Assembly: GCA_963677485.1 (NCBI GenBank)
Contig: OY781964.1
Location: 1,440,001-1,504,000, forward strand
From: Armatimonadota bacterium
GTDB lineage: Bacteria > Armatimonadota > HRBIN16
Direction: 5' to 3'
DNA: 64,000 bases
Position numbers and translations under genes: made by a program. This document shows positions 17,752-58,218 of this stretch, in pieces (positions within the stretch are counted from its first letter, which is position 1; each line of letters opens with the position of its first letter). Under the pieces are notes generated by a model, which worked only from the letters and a program-made list of their open reading frames with translations, ran no database searches and was not told the DNA's origin.

Positions 17752-18248
17752 ATACAGCCGAGATTGAACAACGAATCGCTGCCCTGTCCGCAGAGATGAG
17801 TGCTTTAGGAGAACAGCTTCAAAAAGAAGTCGTAACAGAAGACTTTAAACTGGTCGATGACAACCAGTGCGTGCGTGCTCGCATGTATATCGATGATACA
17901 GACGCATCAAGATTTGAGATGTATGATGAGACCGGACTTGTCGGAGCACAGATATTGGTAGGCCCTGAGGGTCACAGCCATATCGCGTTGGGTGACGAAA
18001 GGGGCTCGAGACTAGATGTCAATATGGAGCGCGGTAACCCAGGCTCCATTCGAATGTGGGTTCCTGGCTATGATGAATATCTGTCAAGGGAAATCATCAT
18101 CGGAACTTCCGATGACATGATGGTGGGCATCAAAATGTCTCAAGGTGGAGTGCAAAAGATATTTGTTGGTATCGATCAAGATGGTATTGCTAAGATATCC
18201 TTGCGTCAAGAAGATGGAACAGTCAAGGAATATGGCCCAAAGGAGTGA
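17748..18248 (+). CDS. Hypothetical protein, N-terminal coiled coil plus beta-rich domain
   Basis: 166-aa ORF, TTGA overlap with upstream stop. Confidence 0.65.
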   Translation: MNTAEIEQRIAALSAEMSALGEQLQKEVVTEDFKLVDDNQCVRARMYIDDTDASRFEMYDETGLVGAQILVGPEGHSHIALGDERGSRLDVNMERGNPGSIRMWVPGYDEYLSREIIIGTSDDMMVGIKMSQGGVQKIFVGIDQDGIAKISLRQEDGTVKEYGPKE

Positions 18249-18784
18249 GCACTATAGAGCAATTGGATGAAAGGCTGCACGAGCTGGAACAACAGCTTGC
18301 ACGTCTAAAACAAACCCTCGCGTCTCAGATAAGCACTCGGCGGCTATGTGTTGGAAATCTACCTGTACCTGCTGATATGCCTGCACTCCTGAAGTGTCGC
18401 ATTGATCTGCGTGGGCCTGTAATCTCGGAACCGGTAGGCGGCATGAAGTTGATACCAGACTTTCTAGGTGCAAGTCTTAACATAAACCCAAAAACTATTA
18501 AGCATCAATTGATATTTCGGTATGATCCCGAACAACATGACCTTGTGATGTCGCTTTTCAATATGCTAACACGTGACAATGTCAGTTTATACCGACCATT
18601 GCTGCTGTGTTTGTATGAAAAAACCAAGGCGAAGCTGGCCATTGGTGTTAAGATGGAAGGAAACTGCGCCTTGTTAATACAAAGCGACAAGAAGCCAAAA
18701 TGCAGTATCCAGTTTATACTCACCGATGTACCTCAAGTTGTTGTGCTCTCAGGGCGAAAGCAGCACCGACTATTCAATAACTAA
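18245..18784 (+). CDS. Hypothetical protein, N-terminal coiled coil
   Basis: 179-aa ORF, GTGA overlap. Confidence 0.6.
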   Translation: MSTIEQLDERLHELEQQLARLKQTLASQISTRRLCVGNLPVPADMPALLKCRIDLRGPVISEPVGGMKLIPDFLGASLNINPKTIKHQLIFRYDPEQHDLVMSLFNMLTRDNVSLYRPLLLCLYEKTKAKLAIGVKMEGNCALLIQSDKKPKCSIQFILTDVPQVVVLSGRKQHRLFNN

Positions 18785-18852
18785 ATAGACCACCGCAGGA
18801 GCAAACACTCGCAACACAGACGGACCTTGTATATAAGTGCACAGTATTCCGG

Positions 18853-18935
18853 TCGTGGATGACCCTTGTGGTCATCCGAAAACCCAATGCACATGTCGCA
18901 ACCGGTGCGCGGATGACCACAAGGGTCATCCACGA
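18853..18935. repeat. REP doublet (inverted pair)
   Basis: TCGTGGATGACCCTTGTGGTCATCCG ... CGGATGACCACAAGGGTCATCCACGA perfect inverted 26-mers. Confidence 0.75.
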
Positions 18936-19095
18936 AAACAGTACTTATTATACGGGCTGACTTGAACTCAAGAGCGGTGCTGTCTACTATCACTACACAC
19001 TAGGTTTGGCAGAAGGAGTATAAAAACCCGAATAGTTCGGATACTATTAAGTCGGAAGGTACTATATAAGCAAAGTCCTGAATACAGAGGTTTTT

Positions 19096-19200
19096 ATGAT
19101 GTCAGACGAATCAGAAACCATCGAACACAAACTGTCACTAGCTGAACGTAAAGAGATCGTCGAATCTGTGGCTTCCCCTTTAGGCGCTGCACGGCCTTGA
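19096..19200 (+). pseudogene. N-terminal stub of an AlbA_2 (Schlafen-like) domain gene
   Basis: MMSDESETIEHKLSLAERKEIVESVA resembles the ESETxEFK...EIxETVAAFAN start of AlbA_2; RBS GAGG upstream. Confidence 0.55.
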
Positions 19201-19341
19201 CAACCTTTGCGACAACTGGTATATATCATTCAGAGTAGAGAAGACAGGAAGTTGCTCTCTTCCATTACAACCAAATGCTAACCAATAGACCTAGGAAAAC
19301 AGAAATTATACCATTTTCCAGACTTTACTGAGGTAAACAGT

Positions 19342-19764
19342 ATGGATCGATCTGAACATCACAATACGCGTGAACCAAACGCTACCGAGACACAACATAA
19401 TGAAGTACATTGTGTGAGATGCGAGGATAGCAGCAATAGTGATAAAATCGAAGTAAAGCGTGAATGCAAACCAGTGCGTTGTGTGATATCGATGGTTCTT
19501 CATTTTCTTAAAGCACCGATACAGTACGTATTTATAATACTTGGCGTAGCGTATGGTGCGAAATTAACAAAAATTAGTGATAATTTATTATCAATAATGG
19601 TTGTTCGATCATCAGGATCGGTTGATAAAGCGCTAGAAAATATGAATGGGCAACAAACCATGTGGGTTAGTATAGTGTTGTTAGTAACGATTAGTCTTAA
19701 CATATGGATCACACGTTCAAATCTATGTAAGGATTATACTATGATTGGTGCCGCAAGTCGCTAG
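19342..19764 (+). CDS. Hypothetical AT-rich membrane protein (possibly one frameshifted gene with 19745-20317)
   Basis: 140-aa ORF with two hydrophobic segments. Confidence 0.35.
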   Translation: MDRSEHHNTREPNATETQHNEVHCVRCEDSSNSDKIEVKRECKPVRCVISMVLHFLKAPIQYVFIILGVAYGAKLTKISDNLLSIMVVRSSGSVDKALENMNGQQTMWVSIVLLVTISLNIWITRSNLCKDYTMIGAASR

Positions 19765-20317
19765 TGTCATATTAATGGAAAGGATGCCTCTCATGATAAT
19801 CACCTCCATATTTGGTATAGCTATCGTATGTGTTGTAATTCAAACTATATATATAACTTTACGGTTCTTTCATATAAAGCTCATGAATTACTGGGTATTT
19901 GATGCTATCAAATACCGGAATCTCATGGAATATCCTTATCACGCATGCTTAAATGCAGTATTTGCAGATATCGGATTGTATGGTTCATCTACAACGTCTG
20001 CAATGAAGTATAGTGACCTAATATACCAGTCAATTCAAAATCACTTTGATTCATCTGCCATAGCCCAACTGCTAGATAATATGAATCCAGTCATGATAAG
20101 GATGTGTATGGCATGGATGATCGGGGCGCATCCTCTGAGGCTAATCACATATATCACGTTTGCGATAATCGATACATATAGGCAACTAACCATACAGCTA
20201 TGTCAGGAACTAAGGTTCGGATTAGTGAAAGCAACGTACCATTTATTTAGGAAACTATGCGCTATCAAAGTCATGAATGAGGCAAATGACTTCAGGGAGA
20301 TATCATTTTGCGTTTGA
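19745..20317 (+). CDS. Hypothetical AT-rich membrane protein
   Basis: 190-aa ORF with hydrophobic N-terminus. Confidence 0.35.
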   Translation: MVPQVASVILMERMPLMIITSIFGIAIVCVVIQTIYITLRFFHIKLMNYWVFDAIKYRNLMEYPYHACLNAVFADIGLYGSSTTSAMKYSDLIYQSIQNHFDSSAIAQLLDNMNPVMIRMCMAWMIGAHPLRLITYITFAIIDTYRQLTIQLCQELRFGLVKATYHLFRKLCAIKVMNEANDFREISFCV

Positions 20318-20356
20318 TTCGGTTGTCATTACGAATGAATTGCAAGGTTAGGCCAC

Positions 20357-20830
20357 ATTTATGATGATCGTCTGGAGGTGTGGAACCCTGGTATGCTTCC
20401 GACCGGTATGTCTGTAGAGGAATTGTACCGTGAACACCCTTCTCGCCCTCGCAACCCGCGGTTGGCTTCCGCCATGCACAGAGCACGGTTGATTGAGCAC
20501 TGGGGTACAGGAACTCTGCGCATAATCAATGCCTGTGAGTCACGCGGAATGCCTAAGCCGGAGTTCGTCTCCTCCATGGGGTCATTCATCGTGCGATTCA
20601 ACAGAGCATTAAACGAGCCCACATCTGAAACAAATAACGAGCCCAGCGGATGGCAGCAAATCGCACTGAACTATATTCGCGAGAATGGATCTATCACGAC
20701 GTCTGTATTTCAGAAGTTGTTAGGTGTGAGCAATCGGCAAGCATATAACTACCTTATATTGCTGGTGAATAACAAAATCATCGAGAGGGTAGGCTCTGGC
20801 CGTTCAACACATTACGTGACTAGTGCATGA
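20357..20830 (+). pseudogene. C-terminal fragment of an AlbA_2/HATPase_c_4 (RecG-C-like)-HTH protein
   Basis: IYDDRLEVWNPG...SRPRNP...LIEHWGTG...wHTH; homologous to the C-half of 61803-63173. Confidence 0.75.
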
Positions 20831-21118: not shown

Positions 21119-22615
21119 ATGATACTGATACCCCTGCTGTTCTATCTATCTGCCATGATCGGTGTACTCGTGTGGAACATTACGGCTTGTATCATCGTTC
21201 GACGCAGCAAAGATAGATACCCGCGCTGGGGCCGGTGGTGCTGCTATATCGCCACGGTGCTCATGCTGCCCGGACTGGTCTGCGATGTGGATGGTATGAC
21301 CCCGAATCCGCCTTCGACCACATTCGGTGCCTGGCTCTACCCCCTGTCGTTCGTCATGGCTGCCGGGGCCGCCGTCGCTTTTCGTTCTACATCCGGGCCA
21401 CGCCGCTGGTTCATACCGATACTGGCGTTCAACCTCTTGATGGCGTGGGTTTATTCAGCCCGTTTGCTGTTATACCACGGGGTTCCGCTCGGTCTGGCAT
21501 TGGAAGGTCAACAGGTCGCATACGCCATGGTGCAATCGGTCATGACGATATTCCTTTATGTGTTCTTCCCAATATTGAACTGGTGGCCTGTTCTGCCCTG
21601 GCCTGTGCCATCATCTCAATCGCGCTGGCGGGTCTTGCGCGTATTACCGTCTATTGCGGCCGCACTCATCGTGTCGGCAAACATCGTAATGACGCCGTTT
21701 GGCATACGGATTGCCAATAGCTGGCGCAACCCCCTGCCAGTGGCCAGTGCGACGATACCCTCCACTTTTCGGCCCGGTCTCGTGCTGCGTGTGTCGGCTG
21801 AGCCGGGAGCGTGGGAGAAGAGAGCACCTGTGCAGCTTGCGGCGATACGCGAGCTTCGCCCCCGCGCGGTCAACCTGTTTGTCCACGACGACTTGATGCG
21901 GAATCAGGTCAAAGCGAAGGCATTGGAGCGTTTCATTAACGAGATCAAAGCCACTGGAGCGTCTATCATATTGACGGCCGACTACCCTTCAGATTGGCCG
22001 CTCCGCCCGCCAAAAACACGCGAGCAGATACTACGGGTGATGCTGCCTTACCAGCGGTTCCTGGCACGCCGCTATGAACCGGAATACCTGGTGCCTTTCA
22101 TCGAACCGTATGGAGCGTTTGTCGCGGTGACGGGACGTACGCTGCCCGCCAGCGAATGGATGGCACTGCTGCGGGCATCGGCCACCGCGGTGCATTCAGA
22201 GAGCCCCAAGGTCCGATGTGCGGTCTACCTCGGTCAGGCCGAGACCGACCGGCTGCTTTACACGCAGGTCTGTATGAAGGGATCGCCTGTCGATGTCGTG
22301 GGTTTCAGCTTCTACGCTGTGTATCAAACGCGAGAGGAGATGGCCCCCAGACTCCGCTCCGTCGCACGCTGGATTCGCGATTACGGTCGGGGTCGAGAGC
22401 ATTGGGTGTTCGAGTATGGCCAGTCGCCAGTGACCATGGGTGGAGAGCGGTCACAGCGGAACTACCTGGAGTATGTGATGCGCTGGGCGGCTGATCAGCC
22501 CAACATGCGCGGGGCGTGCGTGTTTTCTTTAGATGACGAGGCCGAAAAGCTTGGGCTCATGACGGCCCAGGGCCGTCAACGTGAGGCGTACCGTTGGTTC
22601 CGTGGCCTGAGATGA
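21119..22615 (+). CDS. Membrane protein with C-terminal glycoside-hydrolase-like TIM-barrel domain
   Basis: About 6 hydrophobic helices, then FIEP, DVVGFSFY, WVFEYG, CVFSLDD, LGL motifs. Confidence 0.6.
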   Translation: MILIPLLFYLSAMIGVLVWNITACIIVRRSKDRYPRWGRWCCYIATVLMLPGLVCDVDGMTPNPPSTTFGAWLYPLSFVMAAGAAVAFRSTSGPRRWFIPILAFNLLMAWVYSARLLLYHGVPLGLALEGQQVAYAMVQSVMTIFLYVFFPILNWWPVLPWPVPSSQSRWRVLRVLPSIAAALIVSANIVMTPFGIRIANSWRNPLPVASATIPSTFRPGLVLRVSAEPGAWEKRAPVQLAAIRELRPRAVNLFVHDDLMRNQVKAKALERFINEIKATGASIILTADYPSDWPLRPPKTREQILRVMLPYQRFLARRYEPEYLVPFIEPYGAFVAVTGRTLPASEWMALLRASATAVHSESPKVRCAVYLGQAETDRLLYTQVCMKGSPVDVVGFSFYAVYQTREEMAPRLRSVARWIRDYGRGREHWVFEYGQSPVTMGGERSQRNYLEYVMRWAADQPNMRGACVFSLDDEAEKLGLMTAQGRQREAYRWFRGLR

Positions 22616-22643: not shown

Positions 22644-24860
22644 TTACCCCCTGCGCCGTTCGTGCTTCTCATCCTGCGGGTTCACGCGGTGTATCTCTAG
22701 CACGTCACTGAGCTTGTGCAGGTGGTCCATCACCCTGCGCAGGTGCTCCACACTCCGCACATTCAGCGTGACCTTTAGATTGGCCACAGAGTCGTCATCT
22801 AAAAATGCGTCGAGGGTATAAATACCGGCGCTGCAGTCGGTCAGTGCTTGCGACACACTGCTGATCAGTCCCGTCCGTTCCGCGGCGGTGATGCGCACAG
22901 GGGTGTGATACGTCACGTCCGGCTGTTCTTCCCACTCAAAACGACATACATTGTCCGGATCGGACATACGCTGTGTAAAGAATTTCGCACAGTCCGCCCT
23001 ATGTACTGTAATGCCACGACTTTTTGGCGGCCGCCAGCCATATACAGCATCACCTGGCAAAGGCAGGCAGCACGTGGCTCGCCGTAACAGGTTGTGCAAT
23101 ATGCAGAGTTTTGGCCCTTCGCGGTGTTCCCGCAGCAACCGCGTGATGGCTCTATCGGCACTGAACTGCCCATCCCCCAGCCCAGACAGGAAGGCATCGG
23201 CACCACCCAGTCCCAGCCGTTTTGCCATCTGCAGGATCGCCTCAGGTGTCAACATCTGCTGCGGATCGGGACCAAATCGAGAAGCGGCGGCGAGGAGCAT
23301 CTGTCGACCCTTTTCGATATTGCTTGCCAAAGCTTGCTTGCGGATGCTGGTCTTGATCGCCCTGAGAGCTAAAGGTGTGTGAGCATGGTTTAACCAGTGG
23401 ACCGAAGGCATCACATCTGGTTTCGTAATGATCTCGACCACATCACCCTTTTTCAGGATCGTATTCATGAACACGGGAGTTCGGTTGATGATGGCACCAG
23501 AATAGTGCATACCCAGTTCCGAGTGAATACGGAAAGCAAAATCGAGCGGTGTGGAACCCGCCTGTAAATCCACGACATCGCCCTTCGGTGTAAACACAGT
23601 GATCGAGGTACCGCCCAGATCTTCACGCAGCAGGCGCAGATACTCGTCGGGTTCGACATCCTTCTCCTGTGTCCACAACAAAAGCTGCTGCTGCAGTTTG
23701 GCGAAACGCTGTTCCAGCTTACAGTTGTGTGCGGGAGACTCCCCGTCGCGCCAGTAGGAGGCCAGACCGTAGTCGGCACTACGGTGCATCTCCTGGCTGC
23801 GTATCAAAATCCGCATTTCCATGCCGTTATGCCCAACCACCGTGGTATGCAGGGCCTCATACAGGTTCGAACGGCTTCTGGCTATGAAATCCTCGAATTT
23901 ACCAGGCACAGGCAGCCATAATCCATGCACAATGCCAAGTGTCTCGTAGCAACTGCTCACAGAAGGCACCACCACGACAATCGAAAACAGATCGAATATC
24001 TGCTCGGCACTCAACTCACCGCGGTGGGTTTTCATCACTACTTCGTAGAGGTGACGCTTCTGAACCATCACACTGGCATTCACACTACGGCCATAGAAGG
24101 CATTTCGGAGATCGTTGATCGCACTGCTCAGGATATATCCCTGCTTGGCGAAGGTGGCATCCATCTGAATGCGCATATTCTTGGCGAGGTGGGGCTCAAG
24201 TTCACTAAATGCGATATCCTCAAGCTCAGTTCGGATGGGCCATACTCCCAGCTTTTCGGCAAGAGGGGCGTATATCTGCAGCGTTTCGGCAGCCAGGCGT
24301 CTCCGTTTGGCGGCACTGGGAAGAGCACCCAGACTGCGCATATTATGCAGCCTGTCAGCCAGCTTCACCGCCAACACTCGAATGTCCTTCGCCACACCAT
24401 ACAGGATTTTACGCAGCGTCTGGGCTTTAGCACGCGTATCGCTCAGTTCCCTCACGCGGTCAGGATTGGTGGCCTCCACATCGATGTCTTCTGGTGTCAC
24501 CATATCACGTGGGATTTTGGTCACAGCGTCTACAATTTCCGCCACTTCATGCCCGAAGTGAGCACGCACCATCTCCAGATCGACTTGAGGGCAATCCTCC
24601 ACCGTGTCGTGCAGCAGCGCAGCCTGCACCGTCGGTGGGTCCATTTCCAGGTGCGCCACGATCTCAGCCACACTCAGGGGATGCTCTATGTAAGGCGTGA
24701 CGTGATCCGCACGCATCTGCCCTGTATGTGCCTCATAAGCGAATAGAAATGTCCGCTCAATCAACCCCTCGGGACAATTCGGATAGGCGGTCATAATGGT
24801 GTCTTGAAGTTTGGCTACGCGTTTCGCAAAGCGATCGGGTATTGCCTGTAAATTGCTCAT
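22644..24860 (-). CDS. Long RSH protein, predicted hydrolase-only (SpoT-like): HD, pseudo-SYNTH, TGS, ZFD, ACT
   Basis: Intact HTGQMR, HP, LLHDTVED, KLADRLHNMR; synthetase motifs degenerate (QKRH, DFIARSRSN, RILIRS); ATG at 24860 overlaps upstream TGA. Confidence 0.85.
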   Translation of the reverse strand: MSNLQAIPDRFAKRVAKLQDTIMTAYPNCPEGLIERTFLFAYEAHTGQMRADHVTPYIEHPLSVAEIVAHLEMDPPTVQAALLHDTVEDCPQVDLEMVRAHFGHEVAEIVDAVTKIPRDMVTPEDIDVEATNPDRVRELSDTRAKAQTLRKILYGVAKDIRVLAVKLADRLHNMRSLGALPSAAKRRRLAAETLQIYAPLAEKLGVWPIRTELEDIAFSELEPHLAKNMRIQMDATFAKQGYILSSAINDLRNAFYGRSVNASVMVQKRHLYEVVMKTHRGELSAEQIFDLFSIVVVVPSVSSCYETLGIVHGLWLPVPGKFEDFIARSRSNLYEALHTTVVGHNGMEMRILIRSQEMHRSADYGLASYWRDGESPAHNCKLEQRFAKLQQQLLLWTQEKDVEPDEYLRLLREDLGGTSITVFTPKGDVVDLQAGSTPLDFAFRIHSELGMHYSGAIINRTPVFMNTILKKGDVVEIITKPDVMPSVHWLNHAHTPLALRAIKTSIRKQALASNIEKGRQMLLAAASRFGPDPQQMLTPEAILQMAKRLGLGGADAFLSGLGDGQFSADRAITRLLREHREGPKLCILHNLLRRATCCLPLPGDAVYGWRPPKSRGITVHRADCAKFFTQRMSDPDNVCRFEWEEQPDVTYHTPVRITAAERTGLISSVSQALTDCSAGIYTLDAFLDDDSVANLKVTLNVRSVEHLRRVMDHLHKLSDVLEIHRVNPQDEKHERRRG

Positions 24861-27124
24861 AATGCCTCTTCCTGCGGGCCTTCGCGGCGCACCAAAAGCA
24901 CAGACGGCACACTCCGGCAACGGTCGATCAATGTTTGCAGATGGCTTAGCCCCGTGACCTCACAGCAGATGTCTGTGACCGAACTAGCCTGTTTCGTGAC
25001 TTTGGACTTAAAGCTGGTGATGTTGGTTTTGGTGTCGCTAAAGTTGGAGATGATCTCGGGCCAAATACCATGCCTGTCCATGAACTCGATGCGTACGGTG
25101 GCACTAAAAACTTCGCCTGCCCGCTCGTTCCACTCAATCAACACCAGCCGTTCCGGCTCAGTGCGCTGATAGTTCTTCGCGTTTGGGCAGCAAGAACGGT
25201 GCATCATCAGTCCACGACCGCGGCTGGTATACCCCAGCACCACATCGCCAGGGATCGGTGAGCAGCAGCGTCCCCGCTTGATCATGACATTATCGATGCC
25301 GCCCACAACCAGTTTGGTCTCTTTTTCAACCACCTTGCTGATGGGTGTAATCAGCTCGTTAGTCACAGGGGCGTCAGGCAACAGCCGCTGACCGATGGCC
25401 TGTGCGGAGGCGCGACCATCGGCTACTGCGGCGTAGACGTCGTCGATATCGTGGAAGCTCATGCGTCGCACGATCTCATCAAGCGCGTCCGGCCTCAGCA
25501 GTTCGTGCGGTTCGAGCCCTAGCCGCTCCGCCTCCTTTTCAAGAAGCTCGCGGCCACGCTGCACATTCGCATCATGGTCTAGTTTGCGGAAAAAGTTTCG
25601 TATCTTACTGCGGGCATGGTTAGTTTTGACAAAGTTCAGCCAGTCACGGCTGGGTTCCGCGTTGGAGCGGGTGACGATCTCCACCACATCCCCGTTCTTC
25701 AGTTGCGTGTTGACGGGGGTCATACGGCCATTGACCTTGGCACCCACGCAGAGATTACCCATGTTAGTATGCACGCGGTAAGCGAAGTCGATGGGTGTAG
25801 AGCCCGCAACCAGGTCTACCACCTCACCCTTGGGTGTGAACACAAAAACCAGGTCGCTGAACAGGTTTTTTACCACGCTGCCAAGGAATGTGGTGTCTTC
25901 GCGGCCTTCTACCTGCCAGTTAAATAACTGCTGCCGCAGGTTGGTCATACGCCGCTCGAAGGTGTCATCCCCAGATCCGCCCTCTTTATACTGCCAGTGG
26001 GCGGCCAGCCCAAAGTCGGCGTTGCGGTGCATCTGCCAGGTACGTATCTGCACCTCCAGCGGCTGCTGGTTAGGCCCGAATACTTTAGTGTGGATGCTCT
26101 GGTAGAGGTTACTTTTCGGTCTGGCGATGTAATCATCAAAGCGGTTTGGAATCGGCTGCCACAGATCATGCACAATGCCCAGCGTATGGTAGCAGTCGCC
26201 AACCGTCTCGGTGATCACCCGCAAGGCTAACAGGTCAAAAATCTGATCGAGGTCCAACTGCTCTTTGATCATCTTATTGTAGATGCTATATAGGTGCTTG
26301 GGCCGGCCCTGCACCTCGGCGTTGATGCCCTCGCGTTCCAGTCGGTTCTTCAAGATGCCGATGGCCCGCTGGATATCGCGTTCGCGAACCTGCCGAGTGG
26401 AAGAGACCCTGGTGGCCAGTTGATGATAGGCTTCGGGGTTCCGCAGTTTGAAAGAAAGGTCTTCCAGCTCCCATTTCAACTGCCACACACCCAGGCGATG
26501 GCTCAACGGCGCATAGATGGCCAGAGTCTCTTCTGCGATCCGCTGCTGAGTATGTTGATCATACATATCGGCACTTCGGAGCTGGTGAAGGCGGTCGGCA
26601 AGTTTCAATACAATCACACGCAGGTCGCGCGACATCGCCAGAAGTATCTTACGGAGGTTCACCGCCGCAGCCTGTTGTATTTTCATCCGGCGGCGGCGGT
26701 CATGGTCGGTTTCGTCCTCAGCTACCTCATCCACATCGCGCAGCTCGAACACGCTGAGCGTGCTGATGCTATGCACAATGCCGGCTACTTCGTCACCGAA
26801 GCGGGCTTTTAAAGTATCAAGGGTGACCAACTGGCGGGGATAATACGTATTATGCAGGATGGCAGCGCAGATAGCCGCCGCATCCATTTCGAGGCCGATG
26901 AGTATTTGCGCGACTTGCACGGGGTGTTCGAAGAGTTCGAGGTGGGTGGTTTCGTCGATGTTGTTCAACATCACGGACTTGGCGAATTCGGCAGCCGCGA
27001 GGATAGCCGCACGCTCTTCTTCTGTATGAGTTTCAGGCAGTTCAGCTAGCAGCTTTTGAACCTGAAGATCATACCGCTTTGATACTGCGTCAAGGCTTAT
27101 GTCGATGTGCTCTGTTGTACCCAT
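24857..27124 (-). CDS. Long RSH protein, predicted synthetase-only (RelA-like): pseudo-HD, SYNTH, TGS, ZFD, ACT
   Basis: Intact GRPKHLYSI, DLLALR, DYIARPKSNLYQSIHT, EVQIRT; HD motif reads ILHNTYYP; start MGTTEH at 27124. Confidence 0.88.
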   Translation of the reverse strand: MGTTEHIDISLDAVSKRYDLQVQKLLAELPETHTEEERAAILAAAEFAKSVMLNNIDETTHLELFEHPVQVAQILIGLEMDAAAICAAILHNTYYPRQLVTLDTLKARFGDEVAGIVHSISTLSVFELRDVDEVAEDETDHDRRRRMKIQQAAAVNLRKILLAMSRDLRVIVLKLADRLHQLRSADMYDQHTQQRIAEETLAIYAPLSHRLGVWQLKWELEDLSFKLRNPEAYHQLATRVSSTRQVRERDIQRAIGILKNRLEREGINAEVQGRPKHLYSIYNKMIKEQLDLDQIFDLLALRVITETVGDCYHTLGIVHDLWQPIPNRFDDYIARPKSNLYQSIHTKVFGPNQQPLEVQIRTWQMHRNADFGLAAHWQYKEGGSGDDTFERRMTNLRQQLFNWQVEGREDTTFLGSVVKNLFSDLVFVFTPKGEVVDLVAGSTPIDFAYRVHTNMGNLCVGAKVNGRMTPVNTQLKNGDVVEIVTRSNAEPSRDWLNFVKTNHARSKIRNFFRKLDHDANVQRGRELLEKEAERLGLEPHELLRPDALDEIVRRMSFHDIDDVYAAVADGRASAQAIGQRLLPDAPVTNELITPISKVVEKETKLVVGGIDNVMIKRGRCCSPIPGDVVLGYTSRGRGLMMHRSCCPNAKNYQRTEPERLVLIEWNERAGEVFSATVRIEFMDRHGIWPEIISNFSDTKTNITSFKSKVTKQASSVTDICCEVTGLSHLQTLIDRCRSVPSVLLVRREGPQEEAL

Positions 27125-27154: not shown

Positions 27155-27167
27155 TTTTATATTATAC
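27155..27167. other. Candidate attL core (contains minus-strand TATAAT 37 nt upstream of the RSH start)
   Basis: TTTTATATTATAC identical to 58117-58129; arm-like CTCATATTTAGACTC at 27261-27275. Confidence 0.65.
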
Positions 27168-27367
27168 TCAACAATCGCACCTGGATGACTTGAGCACACT
27201 ACGCCACATATTTACACCTATAAGCGCACTGTATAACATGTTAGCGCACCGTGCGTGTGTCTCATATTTAGACTCCGGCGCGGTGACATTCAAATGAGAA
27301 TGAAGCGCGCTGAGCCATTTGTTGTCATTCAACTCGACTTAATGTTAGTGATTGCGGGAGGCACACT

Positions 27368-28195
27368 ATGAAGCTCGTTAAGGCGCAGAAATTTACTCCA
27401 TTCCCCTCTTCTATTATAAGATCAGGGTTGTGGGCGCAGCTGTCAGCATCGGCGAAAGCCGTCTATGTCTGTCTGCTTGATCGGTCCGATGGAAACACCT
27501 GCAAGTGTTGGCCAAGCTATGCTACGATCGCGAAAGATGCGGGTATCTGCAGGGCATCGGCAATCGTGGCTGTGAAGGAACTTATGACCAAGGAACTGGT
27601 GATAATAGAAGCCAGGCATGACGACGAAGGCGACCAGGCAAGCAACATCTACACTATGATGGTGCCGGACGATGAGCAGGAATACCCTAGTGTAAATAAT
27701 GCACTAGGTAGTCCAGAAAATAGACCACCCCAGTCTAAAAATCAGACTACCGGTAGTCCAAATTCTAGACCCGAACGAGACCCAATTGAACCAGACCCAT
27801 TGAACGGAGATTCCCCTACGGGATCGGCTGCCGCCGATGCGCCTCACAAAGCGATCAAACCCGATGTTTATCAAGCCGTTCTCGAGGTCTACAACCTCGC
27901 GTGGATGCCGGAACCTCCGAAGAGTGAGGTTGGGCGGGTGCTGAAATACATGAAAGAGGCCCTTAGCAGCGGGTGGGACACGCAGCGCATCGCCACCGCC
28001 TGGATGAATGCCCGCAAACACGCCACAAACCCACACTTCTGGACGCTGTCGTATTGCCTGGTGCACCTGACCGAGGCGGAGGCGATGACCTCGCGGCCTG
28101 GTGGCAAGCCGCCAAAGTTGACCGATGAAGAGCTTGAGGCACGGGCAAGGGCGAACGCACAAAGCGTGCAGGGGGTGCTCCACAATGACCGATGA
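27368..28195 (+). CDS. Phage replication initiator (HTH_36 / O-like)
   Basis: LSASAKAVY, CWPSYATIAKDAG, SNIY; low-complexity linker containing iterons. Confidence 0.8.
   Translation: MKLVKAQKFTPFPSSIIRSGLWAQLSASAKAVYVCLLDRSDGNTCKCWPSYATIAKDAGICRASAIVAVKELMTKELVIIEARHDDEGDQASNIYTMMVPDDEQEYPSVNNALGSPENRPPQSKNQTTGSPNSRPERDPIEPDPLNGDSPTGSAAADAPHKAIKPDVYQAVLEVYNLAWMPEPPKSEVGRVLKYMKEALSSGWDTQRIATAWMNARKHATNPHFWTLSYCLVHLTEAEAMTSRPGGKPPKLTDEELEARARANAQSVQGVLHNDR
27687..27773. other. Putative phage replication origin iterons inside rep
   Basis: Four ~21-bp imperfect palindromic units (AGT..A-rich..AC) spaced 21-23 bp, as for lambda O iterons. Confidence 0.55.
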
Positions 28196-56738: not shown

Positions 56739-56985
56739 GTGAGTAAGAAGCCATATCCGATAGTCGGGCTGCTTCCTGAGGTTGTTGATGACGATCCGGC
56801 TGATCTGCCGGACCTTCTGACGCTGGCGGAGGCGGCCAAGCAACTGAAGTGCAGCGCAAAGCACCTGCGTGATCATGTGGCGGCTGGAGGACCTTGCTCA
56901 TTATAAGATCGGGCGCGGCTATATGGTGGCCAGGTGCGACCTTGTGAATTGGGCGCGATCACGCAGGGTGGCCAACCATGCGTAG
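56739..56985 (+). pseudogene. xis: Excisionase (HTH_17) interrupted by a +1 frameshift at ~56889
   Basis: LLTLAEAAKQLKCSAKHLRDHVAAG continues as DLAHYKIGRGYMVARCDLVNW only after removing one G. Confidence 0.75.
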
Positions 56986-58048
56986 AGACAAACATGAGGG
57001 CAGCATTACGCGGATGCCGAATGGACGGTACCGCCTTCGGGTGATGATCTCTGGCAAGATATTCAGCCACACGGCGGATTCTAAAGTGGAGCTAAACAAG
57101 TGGCGGCGGGAACTGCTGATACAGATCGAGAGCGGCATCAAGCCTCACGCCACCAGGATGACAGTCACAGAGGCGTTTCATGAGTGGTTCGTGGATTATG
57201 CGCCGACGGTGCGGCGGTCCACATCCTGCAACATCGCCTCTGCGATCAAGATGTGGGAGCGGCTGATGCCGGGCATGAAGCTGACACACCTAAACAAGGG
57301 CATATTACAGCACGCGGTAGATGTTGGACTTGCCAGCGGATATTCAGCGCGAACACTGTCATGTCGGGCGACCATTCTGGGCATGATGTGCTCCTGGGCG
57401 GTTGAGAAGGGGTATATTCTGCGCAGCCCGAATGATGGGATACGGTTGCCTGCGACTCGCACTAAGGTGGATCGGAATGTGGTGGACTACGCGGAGAGGA
57501 TCATCGAGTATTTCGACGAGCAGCACGATGAGCTAATGGCCGCGCGGTGCAGGCTCCTGGTGTATACCGGCCTGCGGATTTCCGAGGCGTGTGGGCTGAA
57601 GTGGAGTGATGTGGATATGGACCGTCAGAGCATATCGGTCAGCCGGCAGGCCTACAAAGGCCGTATCAGCGTGCCTAAGACCCTGAGCAGCTATCGCACG
57701 ATCACGCTGCCCAACAGTGCTATTGGGGTGCTGGAGTATTTCCAGGCGCAGAGCAAGGGGCCTTATATCATCTCAACCACCGATAAGCCGTGCAGCGGGA
57801 ACAATGTTTCAAAAAACATATCCCGCGCTGGAAAGGCGTTGGGCTTTGAGTTCAAGTGTCATTGGTTCCGGCACGCTCACAGCAGCTTTTGTTTGCACCA
57901 CGGCGTGAACATCGCGGCCATCAGCGCGCGGTTAGGGCATGCCTCCATCAGCACCACGTTGAACATCTATTCTCACATGCTTCCAGGGGCCGATGACGCG
58001 GTTAGGGAGCTGTGGGCGGTCAAACATGTCGTTAAAAAAGTCGAATAG
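56978..58048 (+). CDS. int: Tyrosine integrase
   Basis: GSIT arm domain, YTGLRISE, PKT, HWFRH, LGH, IYSH. Confidence 0.95.
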   Translation: MRRDKHEGSITRMPNGRYRLRVMISGKIFSHTADSKVELNKWRRELLIQIESGIKPHATRMTVTEAFHEWFVDYAPTVRRSTSCNIASAIKMWERLMPGMKLTHLNKGILQHAVDVGLASGYSARTLSCRATILGMMCSWAVEKGYILRSPNDGIRLPATRTKVDRNVVDYAERIIEYFDEQHDELMAARCRLLVYTGLRISEACGLKWSDVDMDRQSISVSRQAYKGRISVPKTLSSYRTITLPNSAIGVLEYFQAQSKGPYIISTTDKPCSGNNVSKNISRAGKALGFEFKCHWFRHAHSSFCLHHGVNIAAISARLGHASISTTLNIYSHMLPGADDAVRELWAVKHVVKKVE

Positions 58049-58116: not shown

Positions 58117-58129
58117 TTTTATATTATAC
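58117..58129. other. Candidate attR core
   Basis: TTTTATATTATAC; arm-like CTCAGAATTAGACTC at 58050-58064 (13/15 match to 27261-27275). Confidence 0.65.
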
Positions 58130-58218
58130 CCCGTAGAGGGTATCCCAGGCTGAGACACCCCCGTACGGAGCTATTCTATGCTACGATATAGTGGAATTAC
58201 CAACTGCGGAGGCACCCC

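Follow-up and report, generated by a model that had tools for sequence, protein, structure and literature searches.

Overlapping long RSH genes with reciprocally degenerate catalytic sites in an Armatimonadota bacterium

The 64,000-nucleotide stretch of DNA analysed here (hereafter the window; positions 1,440,001 to 1,504,000 of contig OY781964.1, assembly GCA_963677485.1, Armatimonadota bacterium) carries two adjacent genes for long RelA/SpoT homologues (RSHs), which we call A and B. The genome to which it belongs (G000) is a single contig of 5.22 Mb and represents genus g1 of its family. Both genes lie on the reverse strand, with A upstream of B, and the two reading frames overlap by four bases. 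By their motifs, A is predicted to be a synthetase-only protein ([hS]) and B a hydrolase-only protein ([Hs]). The features of the pair are as follows.

24857..27124, reverse strand: gene A, long RSH of 755 residues, predicted synthetase-only [hS] (open reading frame, translation, Pfam, TIGR00691, motifs)
26483..26995, reverse strand: pseudo-hydrolase (HD) domain of A, residues 44-214 (Pfam HD_4; HNTYYP, DRLHQ)
25976..26308, reverse strand: intact synthetase (SYNTH) domain of A, residues 273-383 (RelA_SpoT, 140.6 bits; scored positions canonical)
25670..25849, reverse strand: TGS domain of A, residues 426-485; the His of DFAYxxH is conserved (Pfam)
24884..25114, reverse strand: ACT/RRM domain of A, residues 671-747 (Pfam ACT_4, 44 bits)
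22644..24860, reverse strand: gene B, long RSH of 738 residues from its ATG, predicted hydrolase-only [Hs] (open reading frame, translation, Pfam, motifs)
24240..24743, reverse strand: intact hydrolase (HD) domain of B, residues 40-207 (HD_4, 148.7 bits; HTGQMR, EHP, HDTVED, DRLHN)
23748..24056, reverse strand: pseudo-synthetase domain of B, residues 269-371 (RelA_SpoT, 74 bits; VQKRH, DLFSIVV, RILIRS)
23424..23603, reverse strand: TGS domain of B, residues 420-479, His kept (Pfam, alignment)
22686..22913, reverse strand: ACT/RRM domain of B, residues 650-725 (Pfam ACT_4, 51.4 bits)
24857..24860, reverse strand: ATGA overlap of the A stop (TGA, 24859-24857) and the B start (ATG, 24860-24858), read directly
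24865..24872, reverse strand: putative Shine-Dalgarno-like sequence GGAAGAGG, lying in the 3' end of A and 4 nt ahead of B's ATG
27166..27171, reverse strand: TATAAT, a candidate -10 box ~40 nt upstream from the start codon (ATG) of A (found by eye and from its conservation)

The first-pass annotation, made from the letters of the DNA, had described two full-length proteins of the order HD-SYNTH-TGS-ZFD-ACT joined by an ATGA overlap, and the open reading frames, the Pfam matches, the ZFD pattern and the junction sequence all confirm this. HD_4, RelA_SpoT, TGS and ACT_4 score above cut-off in both proteins and RelA_AH_RIS does so in A, while both contain the Cys/His pattern of the ZFD (CC...H...C), so that the domain order and size are those of a long RSH of the Rel/RelA/SpoT type. 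The Pfam scores are reciprocal, RelA_SpoT and HD_4 giving 140.6 and 132.4 bits in A and 74.0 and 148.7 bits in B. With the RelA/SpoT family model TIGR00691, A reaches 653.9 bits, over the cut-off of 499.2, and B ends 3 bits below it at 496.0. Classification with profile hidden Markov models thus makes both proteins long RSHs by Pfam, and neither attains the NCBIfam equivalog cut-off for RelA or for SpoT. The two proteins share 33% identity over 750 columns with an E-value of 4e-140, a pairing far beyond chance. Since the genome contains no further match to PF04607 or PF13328, A and B are its only RSH genes.

At the motifs that define the two active sites, the proteins read as follows.

Synthetase G-loop GRxKH: GRPKH in A, VQKRH in B
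Synthetase DxxxxR: DLLALR in A, DLFSIVV in B
Synthetase PKxNxYQSxH: PKSNLYQSIH in A, SRSNLYEALH in B
Synthetase ExQIRT: EVQIRT in A, RILIRS in B
Hydrolase HxGQxR: absent from A, HTGQMR in B
Hydrolase HDxxED: HNTYYP in A, HDTVED in B
Hydrolase DRLHN: DRLHQ in A, DRLHN in B

These were taken from an alignment of 34 long RSHs (those of the family itself, Armatimonadota-type matches, three Firmicutes proteins, E. coli RelA and SpoT, and one Pelistega protein), in which the catalytic state was scored at 15 positions, 8 in the synthetase and 7 in the hydrolase. A is canonical at all eight synthetase positions and deviant at 5/7 hydrolase positions, the substitutions affecting the Asp of HD, the whole of ED, the Arg of GQxR and the DRLHN Asn. 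This agrees with the first reading of A as a protein that keeps every quoted synthetase motif and whose hydrolase lacks HxGQxR and has HNTYYP in place of HDxxED. B is canonical at 7/7 hydrolase positions, with EHP also present in that domain, whereas five of the eight positions scored in its synthetase deviate (R>Q, K>R, R>V, E>R, Q>L); GRxKH and DxxxxR have each lost their Arg, and ExQIRT its Glu and Gln. Further synthetase motif strings in the alignment are DDYIARPKSNLYQSIH in A and EDFIARSRSNLYEALH in B. A bifunctional Rel ([HS]) has both sites canonical, and neither A nor B does. At the level of sequence, A fits the functional type of RelA ([hS]), with its HD residues lost, its SYNTH intact and the TGS His, ZFD and ACT kept, and B fits that of SpoT[Hs], with an intact HD, replaced SYNTH residues and a retained pseudo-SYNTH. 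In the parts of the literature consulted, replacement of the residues corresponding to R249, R277, Y329, D272 and Q347 of Thermus thermophilus Rel is what inactivates the pseudo-SYNTH of Acinetobacter baumannii SpoT (PMC9974481). Judged by motif position, B would have lost the equivalents of R249, R277 and Q347, together with the Glu two residues before Q347.

At the junction the sequence runs ...GCA TTA TGA GCA..., and the A stop and the B ATG were recorded as having three bases in common (by the coordinates listed above, two: 24859 and 24858). DNA contigs of relatives that are ~94-96% identical, from two metagenome runs, span the junction, and none of their listed differences falls at 24857-24860. 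An alternative GTG start of A at 27199 would add 25 residues to the ATG form, giving 780; however, the ATG start matches a 755-residue orthologue with an ATG start in G002, and the candidate -10 box falls within the extension that the GTG start would create, which favours the ATG. The segment carrying this box, GTATAATATAAAA, is conserved in G001.

The pair is not peculiar to one strain. A search of all 17 other genomes of the family found the pair in all three genomes of genus g1 (G000, G001 and G002), with the same motif states and the same overlap, which in G002 again measures 4 bp. HNTYYP and DRLHQ recur in 3/3 A proteins of the genus, and QKRH, DLFSIVV and RI/VLIRS in 3/3 B proteins. The orthologues of B are 91% (G001) and ~60-61% (G002) identical to it. 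Between G000 and G001, the ratio of nonsynonymous to synonymous substitution rates (dN/dS) is 0.030 for the whole of A (pseudo-HD 0.062, SYNTH 0.011) and 0.064 for the whole of B (HD 0.048, pseudo-SYNTH 0.031), and the ACT/RRM of B is 100% identical. Against G002, A is 79% identical overall and 98% in its synthetase domain; B is 60% identical overall, with 78% in the pseudo-SYNTH, 74% in the HD and 46-54% in the C-terminal half. Low dN/dS in all domains indicates that both genes, and both dead domains, are under purifying selection.

Two other genera of the family turn this into a graded series. Genus g2 has a single long RSH in 13/13 genomes searched; in the nine sequences aligned, all scored motifs are intact and the protein has both sites canonical, as expected of a bifunctional [HS] enzyme. 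Genus g3 has three long RSH genes, head to tail, in 2/2 genomes, in the order [hS]-[hs]-[Hs] (L020 2696-9290 in G004; L021 2014-8613 in G006). Gene 1 is A-like, with GRPKH, DLLALR and EVQIRT alongside LILSTYTP and ERLHA, and gene 3 is B-like, with HRDQLR, HDTVED and DRTHN alongside QQRH, DLLSLVI and RIVIRT. The middle gene is degenerate in both sites (LLYEVSAGRQ, LAQKLITL, LRARS, FDVVNLFV, LVLIRT), and its HD_4, RelA_SpoT and TGS matches nevertheless remain above the Pfam cut-off, making it a candidate pseudoenzyme. In gene 3 the TGS match falls below cut-off and Pfam finds no ACT domain. The TGS His is kept in A, in the B proteins of g1 and in g3 genes 1 and 2, and g3 gene 3 has lost it. Each of the g3 genes is intact, with dN/dS between the two genomes of 0.057, 0.119 and 0.147 for genes 1, 2 and 3, values that are rough at a dS of 1.3-1.9, near saturation. 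An ATGA follows the A-type gene in all five genomes with an array (G000, G001, G002, G004 and G006), and in the g3 arrays the gene that follows the overlap is the [hs] copy. The survey of synteny in relatives that had been suggested at the outset thus returned a pair or a trio in five genomes of g1 and g3 and a single copy in g2. The suspicion that the degenerate motifs might be strain-specific decay is refuted, as they are kept in 3/3 genomes of g1 and A-like and B-like copies occur in g3.

As a separate observation, several g2 genomes have an extra short open reading frame (~190-310 residues) that matches weakly, with E-values of 1e-8 to 3e-10, to the HD part of B only (for example G015:C4:285343-285630 and G014:C222:19159-19404). 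These could be small alarmone hydrolases (SAHs) or unrelated HD proteins; no such frame was found in G000.

In the genomes of the phylum searched, adjacency of long RSH genes was not encountered beyond the family. A search with PF04607 in 401 genomes of the phylum gave a match in 386 and at least two matches in 30; the g1 and g3 genomes account for five of these. For the remaining 25, a different contig or a site hundreds of kb away carries the second match, mostly in a short open reading frame, one case being a split single gene, and there is no other adjacent long-RSH pair among the 401. A profile built from seven B-type sequences and searched against 1.84 billion representatives gave two clusters that stand well clear of all others (1293.6 and 1081.9 bits, the next scoring 560.1), both from the family itself. 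Eight of the best 150 matches of this profile search have at least two deviant catalytic positions: P0005 and P0138 are B-type, P0147 is g3 gene 1, P0220 (from an Anaerolineae metagenome-assembled genome by its source label), P0271 and P0275 have synthetase deviations in that domain only, and P0245 and P0255 have hydrolase deviations in that domain only. Sporadic long RSHs that look monofunctional thus seem to occur in other metagenomic lineages. A metagenome scan with P0271 gave a 39% relative only, and a search of genome contigs with B gave a G001-like record and a 31% Pelistega match, adding no new carriers.

Where does the pair come from? The nearest named relatives of A, at 54-57% identity, are labelled Armatimonadota by their sources, the phylum being taken from names only. 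We placed the proteins in a quick maximum-likelihood tree of 39 rows, from which four of the nine g2 sequences (G007, G014, G016 and G017) were omitted as near-duplicates and which was built without reference sequences of the RshA-D subgroups. A and g3 gene 1 (support 99) are sister to the intact Rel of g2 (99), and B and g3 gene 3 (95) are joined by g3 gene 2 (98), with branches of 0.67, 2.31 and 5.12. All A, B, g2 and g3 copies fall inside a 27-row clade (96) of Armatimonadota-type Rel. E. coli SpoT and the Pelistega protein form a separate clade (100), and E. coli RelA, on a long branch, joins two unrelated matches and is a neighbour of neither A nor B. The NCBIfam models concur: A scores 537.8 bits with the RelA model NF008124 (cut-off 728) and has the g2 Rel as its sister, and B scores 388.7 bits with the SpoT model NF008303 (cut-off 947) and stands apart from the SpoT clade. 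The tree and these cut-offs together rule out a proteobacterial origin of the pair. The loop between helices alpha6 and alpha7, counted from HD to DRLHN, has 82-90 residues in A, in the B proteins of g1, in the g2 Rel and in P0007 and P0019, compared with 67 in Firmicutes and E. coli SpoT and 73 in E. coli RelA, and this shared long loop indicates that A and B both derive from the local type of Rel. The independent split proposed by the first-pass annotation is therefore supported, since both proteins sit within the Armatimonadota-type clade, apart from E. coli SpoT and not beside RelA, and the duplication behind the pair appears independent of the proteobacterial one. An approximately unbiased (AU) test, run like its companion below on the quick tree, does not reject the whole family as one clade (p = 0.085). 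The simplest reading of these sequence relationships is that Rel duplicated at or before the base of the family, that the B lineage was then lost in g2, whose remaining copy stayed bifunctional, and that A lost its hydrolase after g2 had split off, once B was available. Alternatively, there may have been a recent duplication followed by very fast evolution of B, or B may have been acquired from a relative.

Complementary losses in duplicated Rel proteins have precedents, and RelA and SpoT are the textbook case of subfunctionalisation of a bifunctional enzyme. What follows on published systems draws on parts of the papers cited. Atkinson et al. (2011; PMC3153485) describe RelA[hS]/SpoT[HS] and complete subfunctionalisation in one gammaproteobacterial family, the Moraxellaceae, as well as lineage-specific second long RSHs, namely RshA in Actinobacteria, RshB in Bacteroidetes, RshC in Bacilli and RshD in Deltaproteobacteria, with an HD in RshB as divergent as that of RelA; 13 long-RSH subfamilies have since been delineated (Jimmy et al., 2020; PMC7229694). 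The statement with which this locus was introduced, that the RelA and SpoT split is characteristic of Beta- and Gammaproteobacteria, is thus incomplete in view of RshA-D (PMC3153485) and of the Rel and RshB pair of Bacteroidetes (PMC6994654), and a RelA/SpoT-like split outside these classes is, going by the published material consulted, not new in itself. Its companion statement, that a hydrolase-only SpoT is known from Moraxellaceae, is borne out by PMC3153485 and PMC9974481.

It is this Moraxellaceae pair, as described for A. baumannii in the portions consulted, that A and B resemble most in kind: a Rel-derived pair of a pseudo-hydrolase with an active synthetase and an active hydrolase with a pseudo-synthetase, in which the pseudo-domains are retained and the pseudo-synthetase lacks substrate-binding Arg and catalytic residues (PMC3153485, PMC9974481). 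The duplication that gave A and B is, however, independent and lies within Armatimonadota-type Rel. The lesions also differ, in that A. baumannii SpoT has lost the Asp and Tyr, which B keeps, having lost the Glu instead; moreover, B keeps a long alpha6-alpha7 loop and the TGS His. In E. coli, relA and spoT are ~0.9 Mb apart, whereas A and B are adjacent with an ATGA overlap. The Porphyromonas and Bacteroides pair, a monofunctional synthetase Rel with a bifunctional RshB, is likewise a lineage-specific Rel duplication with hydrolase residues lost in one copy, but there the partner is still bifunctional, whereas the loss in A and B is reciprocal and the genes are coupled; the passages of PMC6994654 consulted make no statement on adjacency of the Bacteroidetes genes. 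RshA, RshC and RshD are also divergent second copies nested in the Rel part of the tree, yet they are listed as [HS], and the parts of PMC3153485 consulted describe none as a tandem or reciprocal pair; the words 'tandem' and 'adjacent' each occur 0 times in its main text. The taxa of RshA-D (Actinobacteria, Bacteroidetes, Bacilli and Deltaproteobacteria) differ from the Armatimonadota names of the nearest relatives of A. Overlapping operons of two, and sometimes three, genes that join a synthetase with a neutraliser, possibly an alarmone hydrolase, are known from the bicistrons of toxic small alarmone synthetases (toxSAS) and their antitoxins. Those, as the consulted portions of PMC7229694 have it, consist of single-domain toxins with unrelated or SAH antitoxins at accessory loci, whereas A and B are full-length multidomain long RSHs and the only RSH genes of their genome. 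The full-text literature searched contained no account of long-RSH genes that adjoin or overlap, nor any on the RSH biology of Armatimonadetes. What is new here is the combination of a complete [hS] and [Hs] split outside Proteobacteria, a coupled operon, and a sister genus with a doubly dead paralogue.

The scenario that we favour, at roughly three chances in four, is that this two-gene operon, presumably co-transcribed, is the whole (p)ppGpp machinery of the cell, made of two specialised, reciprocally degenerate and translationally coupled paralogues of the bifunctional Rel of Armatimonadota. A would be RelA-like, an active synthetase and starvation sensor with a complete TGS/ZFD/ACT half that most likely makes (p)ppGpp on starved ribosomes, its dead HD having been kept as a regulatory pseudo-domain for intramolecular control. 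B would resemble the hydrolase-only SpoT of Moraxellaceae, an intact Mn-type HD site removing the alarmone either constitutively or in a regulated manner, with the pseudo-SYNTH and the C-terminal domains tuning that site. The same roles are described for the pseudo-domains of RelA and A. baumannii SpoT in the pages consulted (PMC9974481). Through the ATGA, translation of B would be coupled to that of A, such that hydrolase is made whenever the potentially toxic synthetase is made and their ratio is fixed. The same source explains the conditional essentiality of spoT in relA+ E. coli by the need for hydrolysis to offset RelA, and this provides a plain reason for coupling B to A. The pair itself would stem from a Rel duplication at or before the base of the family, independent of the proteobacterial one, and from reciprocal degeneration thereafter.

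Several observations weigh against this scenario. A scan revealed neither a clear terminator following B nor a scored promoter ahead of A, the TATAAT upstream of A was not listed by the consensus promoter scan, and promoter and terminator sites were no more numerous than in shuffled sequences. Of 23 sequencing runs, 20 contain the stretch at least in part and a single one is registered as RNA, with ~5% of the sampled words; this metatranscriptome yields five short contigs (90-99% identical) that lie on both genes and 0 across the junction, uncovered stretches being uninformative and RNA libraries being capable of containing DNA. As to origin, the AU test rejects the g1 and g3 copies as a clade without g2 (p = 0.0205, at a cost of 16.2 log-likelihood units, lnL), and the position of B on long branches (0.67 to 5.12) makes the timing of the duplication unsure. 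As to activity, the first-pass annotation listed the motifs of B correctly, the change of Glu to Arg included, yet B retains the DxxxxR Asp as well as the Tyr and His of YxxxH. Motif loss is only a proxy for activity, and in E. coli SpoT a diverged domain still has weak synthetase activity. The TGS of B keeps the His that reads the CCA end of tRNA (H432 in E. coli RelA and H420 in B. subtilis Rel in the passages of PMC7797070 consulted), and B may thus have a ribosome-linked role. As to structure, the models point both ways. In AlphaFold2 models from shallow alignments, whose values are model confidences, full-length B superposes as a whole neither on the tau-state of SpoT (7qpr; template modelling (TM) score 0.38-0.39) nor on ribosome-bound RelA (0.41), and only its N-terminal domain (NTD) superposes well (7oiw, TMt 0.91); nor is its alpha6-alpha7 loop shortened as reported for SpoT[Hs], being as long as in A. 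Still, B is modelled with a mean predicted local distance difference test (pLDDT) of 84.7, a predicted TM score (pTM) of 0.71, a Core region (372-419) at pLDDT 72-80 and a HEL-ZFD linker at 65-71, and A with a mean pLDDT of 79.4, a pTM of 0.50, a Core (377-418) mostly below 50 and a HEL-ZFD linker (584-601) below 50, a tendency consistent with the contrast between a disordered RelA and a compact SpoT[Hs] in the published material consulted (PMC9974481).

How far do these points favour another explanation? Possibly B, and with it g3 gene 2, is no local tandem duplicate of A: an older paralogue, or a xenologue acquired from a different Armatimonadota lineage, would have ended up next to the resident rel gene. 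This would account for A being sister to the g2 Rel while B and g3 gene 2 fall outside, beyond ten other Armatimonadota-type Rel as well, and for the cost of uniting the g1 and g3 copies without g2. Yet the family as one clade is not rejected, the very long B-type branches (2.31 and 5.12) in a quick tree are a setting for long-branch artefacts, the head-to-tail position, the 4-bp overlap and the shared long loop fit a tandem duplication, and the profile search revealed no B-like donor clade, the only two clusters above 1000 bits coming from the family itself and the next standing at 560. We consider such an origin unlikely. Perhaps, instead, specialisation is incomplete, B being a weak conditional synthetase like E. 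coli SpoT or A retaining residual hydrolase, in a RelA/SpoT[HS]-like arrangement. The Mg-binding Asp, guanine-stacking Tyr and the His after it, all kept in B, point in this direction, as does the fact that its pseudo-SYNTH is among the best-conserved parts of B (78% identity to G002). But the Glu and Gln of ExQIRT have become Arg and Leu and both conserved Arg are gone in 3/3 genomes of g1, the B-type gene of g3 having Val for Leu, while in A the HD Asp, the ED pair, the GQxR Arg and the DRLHN Asn are all replaced, and this makes incomplete specialisation very doubtful. That each copy has one degenerate catalytic domain might even suggest a duplicate decaying towards a pseudogene with no functional partition. 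This is scarcely credible for the only RSH genes of a genome when full-length intact reading frames persist in 3/3 genomes spanning 60-79% protein identity and the degenerate strings HNTYYP, QKRH and RILIRS are themselves conserved; pseudogene decay is ruled out by the dN/dS of 0.03-0.06, overall and in the degenerate domains.

A further explanation concerns what the overlap is for. A and B, or the three proteins in g3, may form a heteromeric or cross-regulating switch, the overlap serving their co-assembly at fixed stoichiometry and not just their joint expression. The first-pass annotation had suggested coupled expression, which the retention of the ATGA in 5/5 array genomes bears out, and had added that it might reflect a heteromeric or cross-regulated (p)ppGpp switch, which fares less well. 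In its favour are this conserved coupling, the purifying selection on the pseudo-domains, the upkeep under selection of a doubly dead [hs] paralogue in g3 (dN/dS 0.119), and a complex prediction for A 1-425 with B 1-419, that is, NTD with NTD only, which scored 0.60 against 0.18 for the best of three controls and counts as weak support. The runs agree in at least 97% of contacts with a partner pLDDT of at least 75. The mark for this score is reached by 58/80 solved complexes and 2/110 mismatched pairs, but those that pass with a score of 0.60 or less are 7 of the 80 solved complexes and both of the passing mismatches, and in the predictor's own wording such a weak pass is 'more often wrong than right unless the guess was likely beforehand'. 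Multi-chain crystals of Rel NTDs exist (1vj7, 5xnx, 7oiw, 6yxa), so the score may be a memory of such solved dimers. Furthermore, full-length A. baumannii SpoT is monomeric in solution, and intramolecular allostery in RelA and SpoT[Hs] already accounts for pseudo-domains, both as given in the sections of PMC9974481 consulted. A heteromeric switch is accordingly quite unlikely. A broader and bolder proposal, unlikely as well but slightly less so, is that the RSH array is an obligate multi-paralogue machine, with a fixed ratio from one coupled message, direct mutual regulation through heteromers or through competition for starved ribosomes, and the dead copy acting as a regulatory pseudoenzyme. 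If true, (p)ppGpp would here be controlled in a way that has not been described for RelA/SpoT.

Should the two-paralogue operon that we favour be correct, the locus would be an independent replay of the RelA/SpoT split in a distant and little-studied phylum. The three genera, with a single intact Rel, a coupled [hS]-[Hs] pair and an [hS]-[hs]-[Hs] trio, form a series in which comparison can ask which residues and linkers must change for monofunctionalisation and whether pseudo-domains always become allosteric modules. The series also raises the role of a catalytically dead long RSH and the question of why the proteobacterial genes separated while the Armatimonadota pair stayed coupled. The practical impact is modest, since the enzymes and the principle are already known.

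The surroundings of the operon differ between genomes. Convergent with B, its downstream neighbour on the forward strand (21119-22615) encodes a predicted membrane protein of 498 residues with a sub-threshold GH53-like match, a gene that lies beside the pair in G001 and not in G002. Farther on, a stretch at 18001-20830 is low in GC (0.42 versus ~0.55), and by it an open reading frame of 150 residues (20378-20830), which matches only the C-terminal part of HATPase_c_4 and a DIP2311-like C-terminal domain, could represent a truncated gene or the relic of a mobile element.

On the other side, directly upstream of A, lies a prophage-like element of ~31 kb that is specific to G000 (27168-58129 of the window). 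Homology to G001 ends at 27167 and picks up again at 58174, within a URO-D-like gene that in G001 lies immediately upstream of A. One end of the element has a tyrosine integrase (56978-58048; PF00589, 91.5 bits) and the other a phage-type replication initiator (27368-28195; phrog_270), and copies of a 13-bp direct repeat, TTTTATATTATAC, flank it at 27155-27167 and 58117-58129. Read in reverse complement, the repeat includes the TATAAT box of the RSH operon. It seems, then, that the element integrated into the promoter of the operon, the -10 box being restored by the repeat and the -35 region replaced. In DNA run X3, the contig breaks at 27155-27184, where the depth doubles from 10.5 to 20.8.

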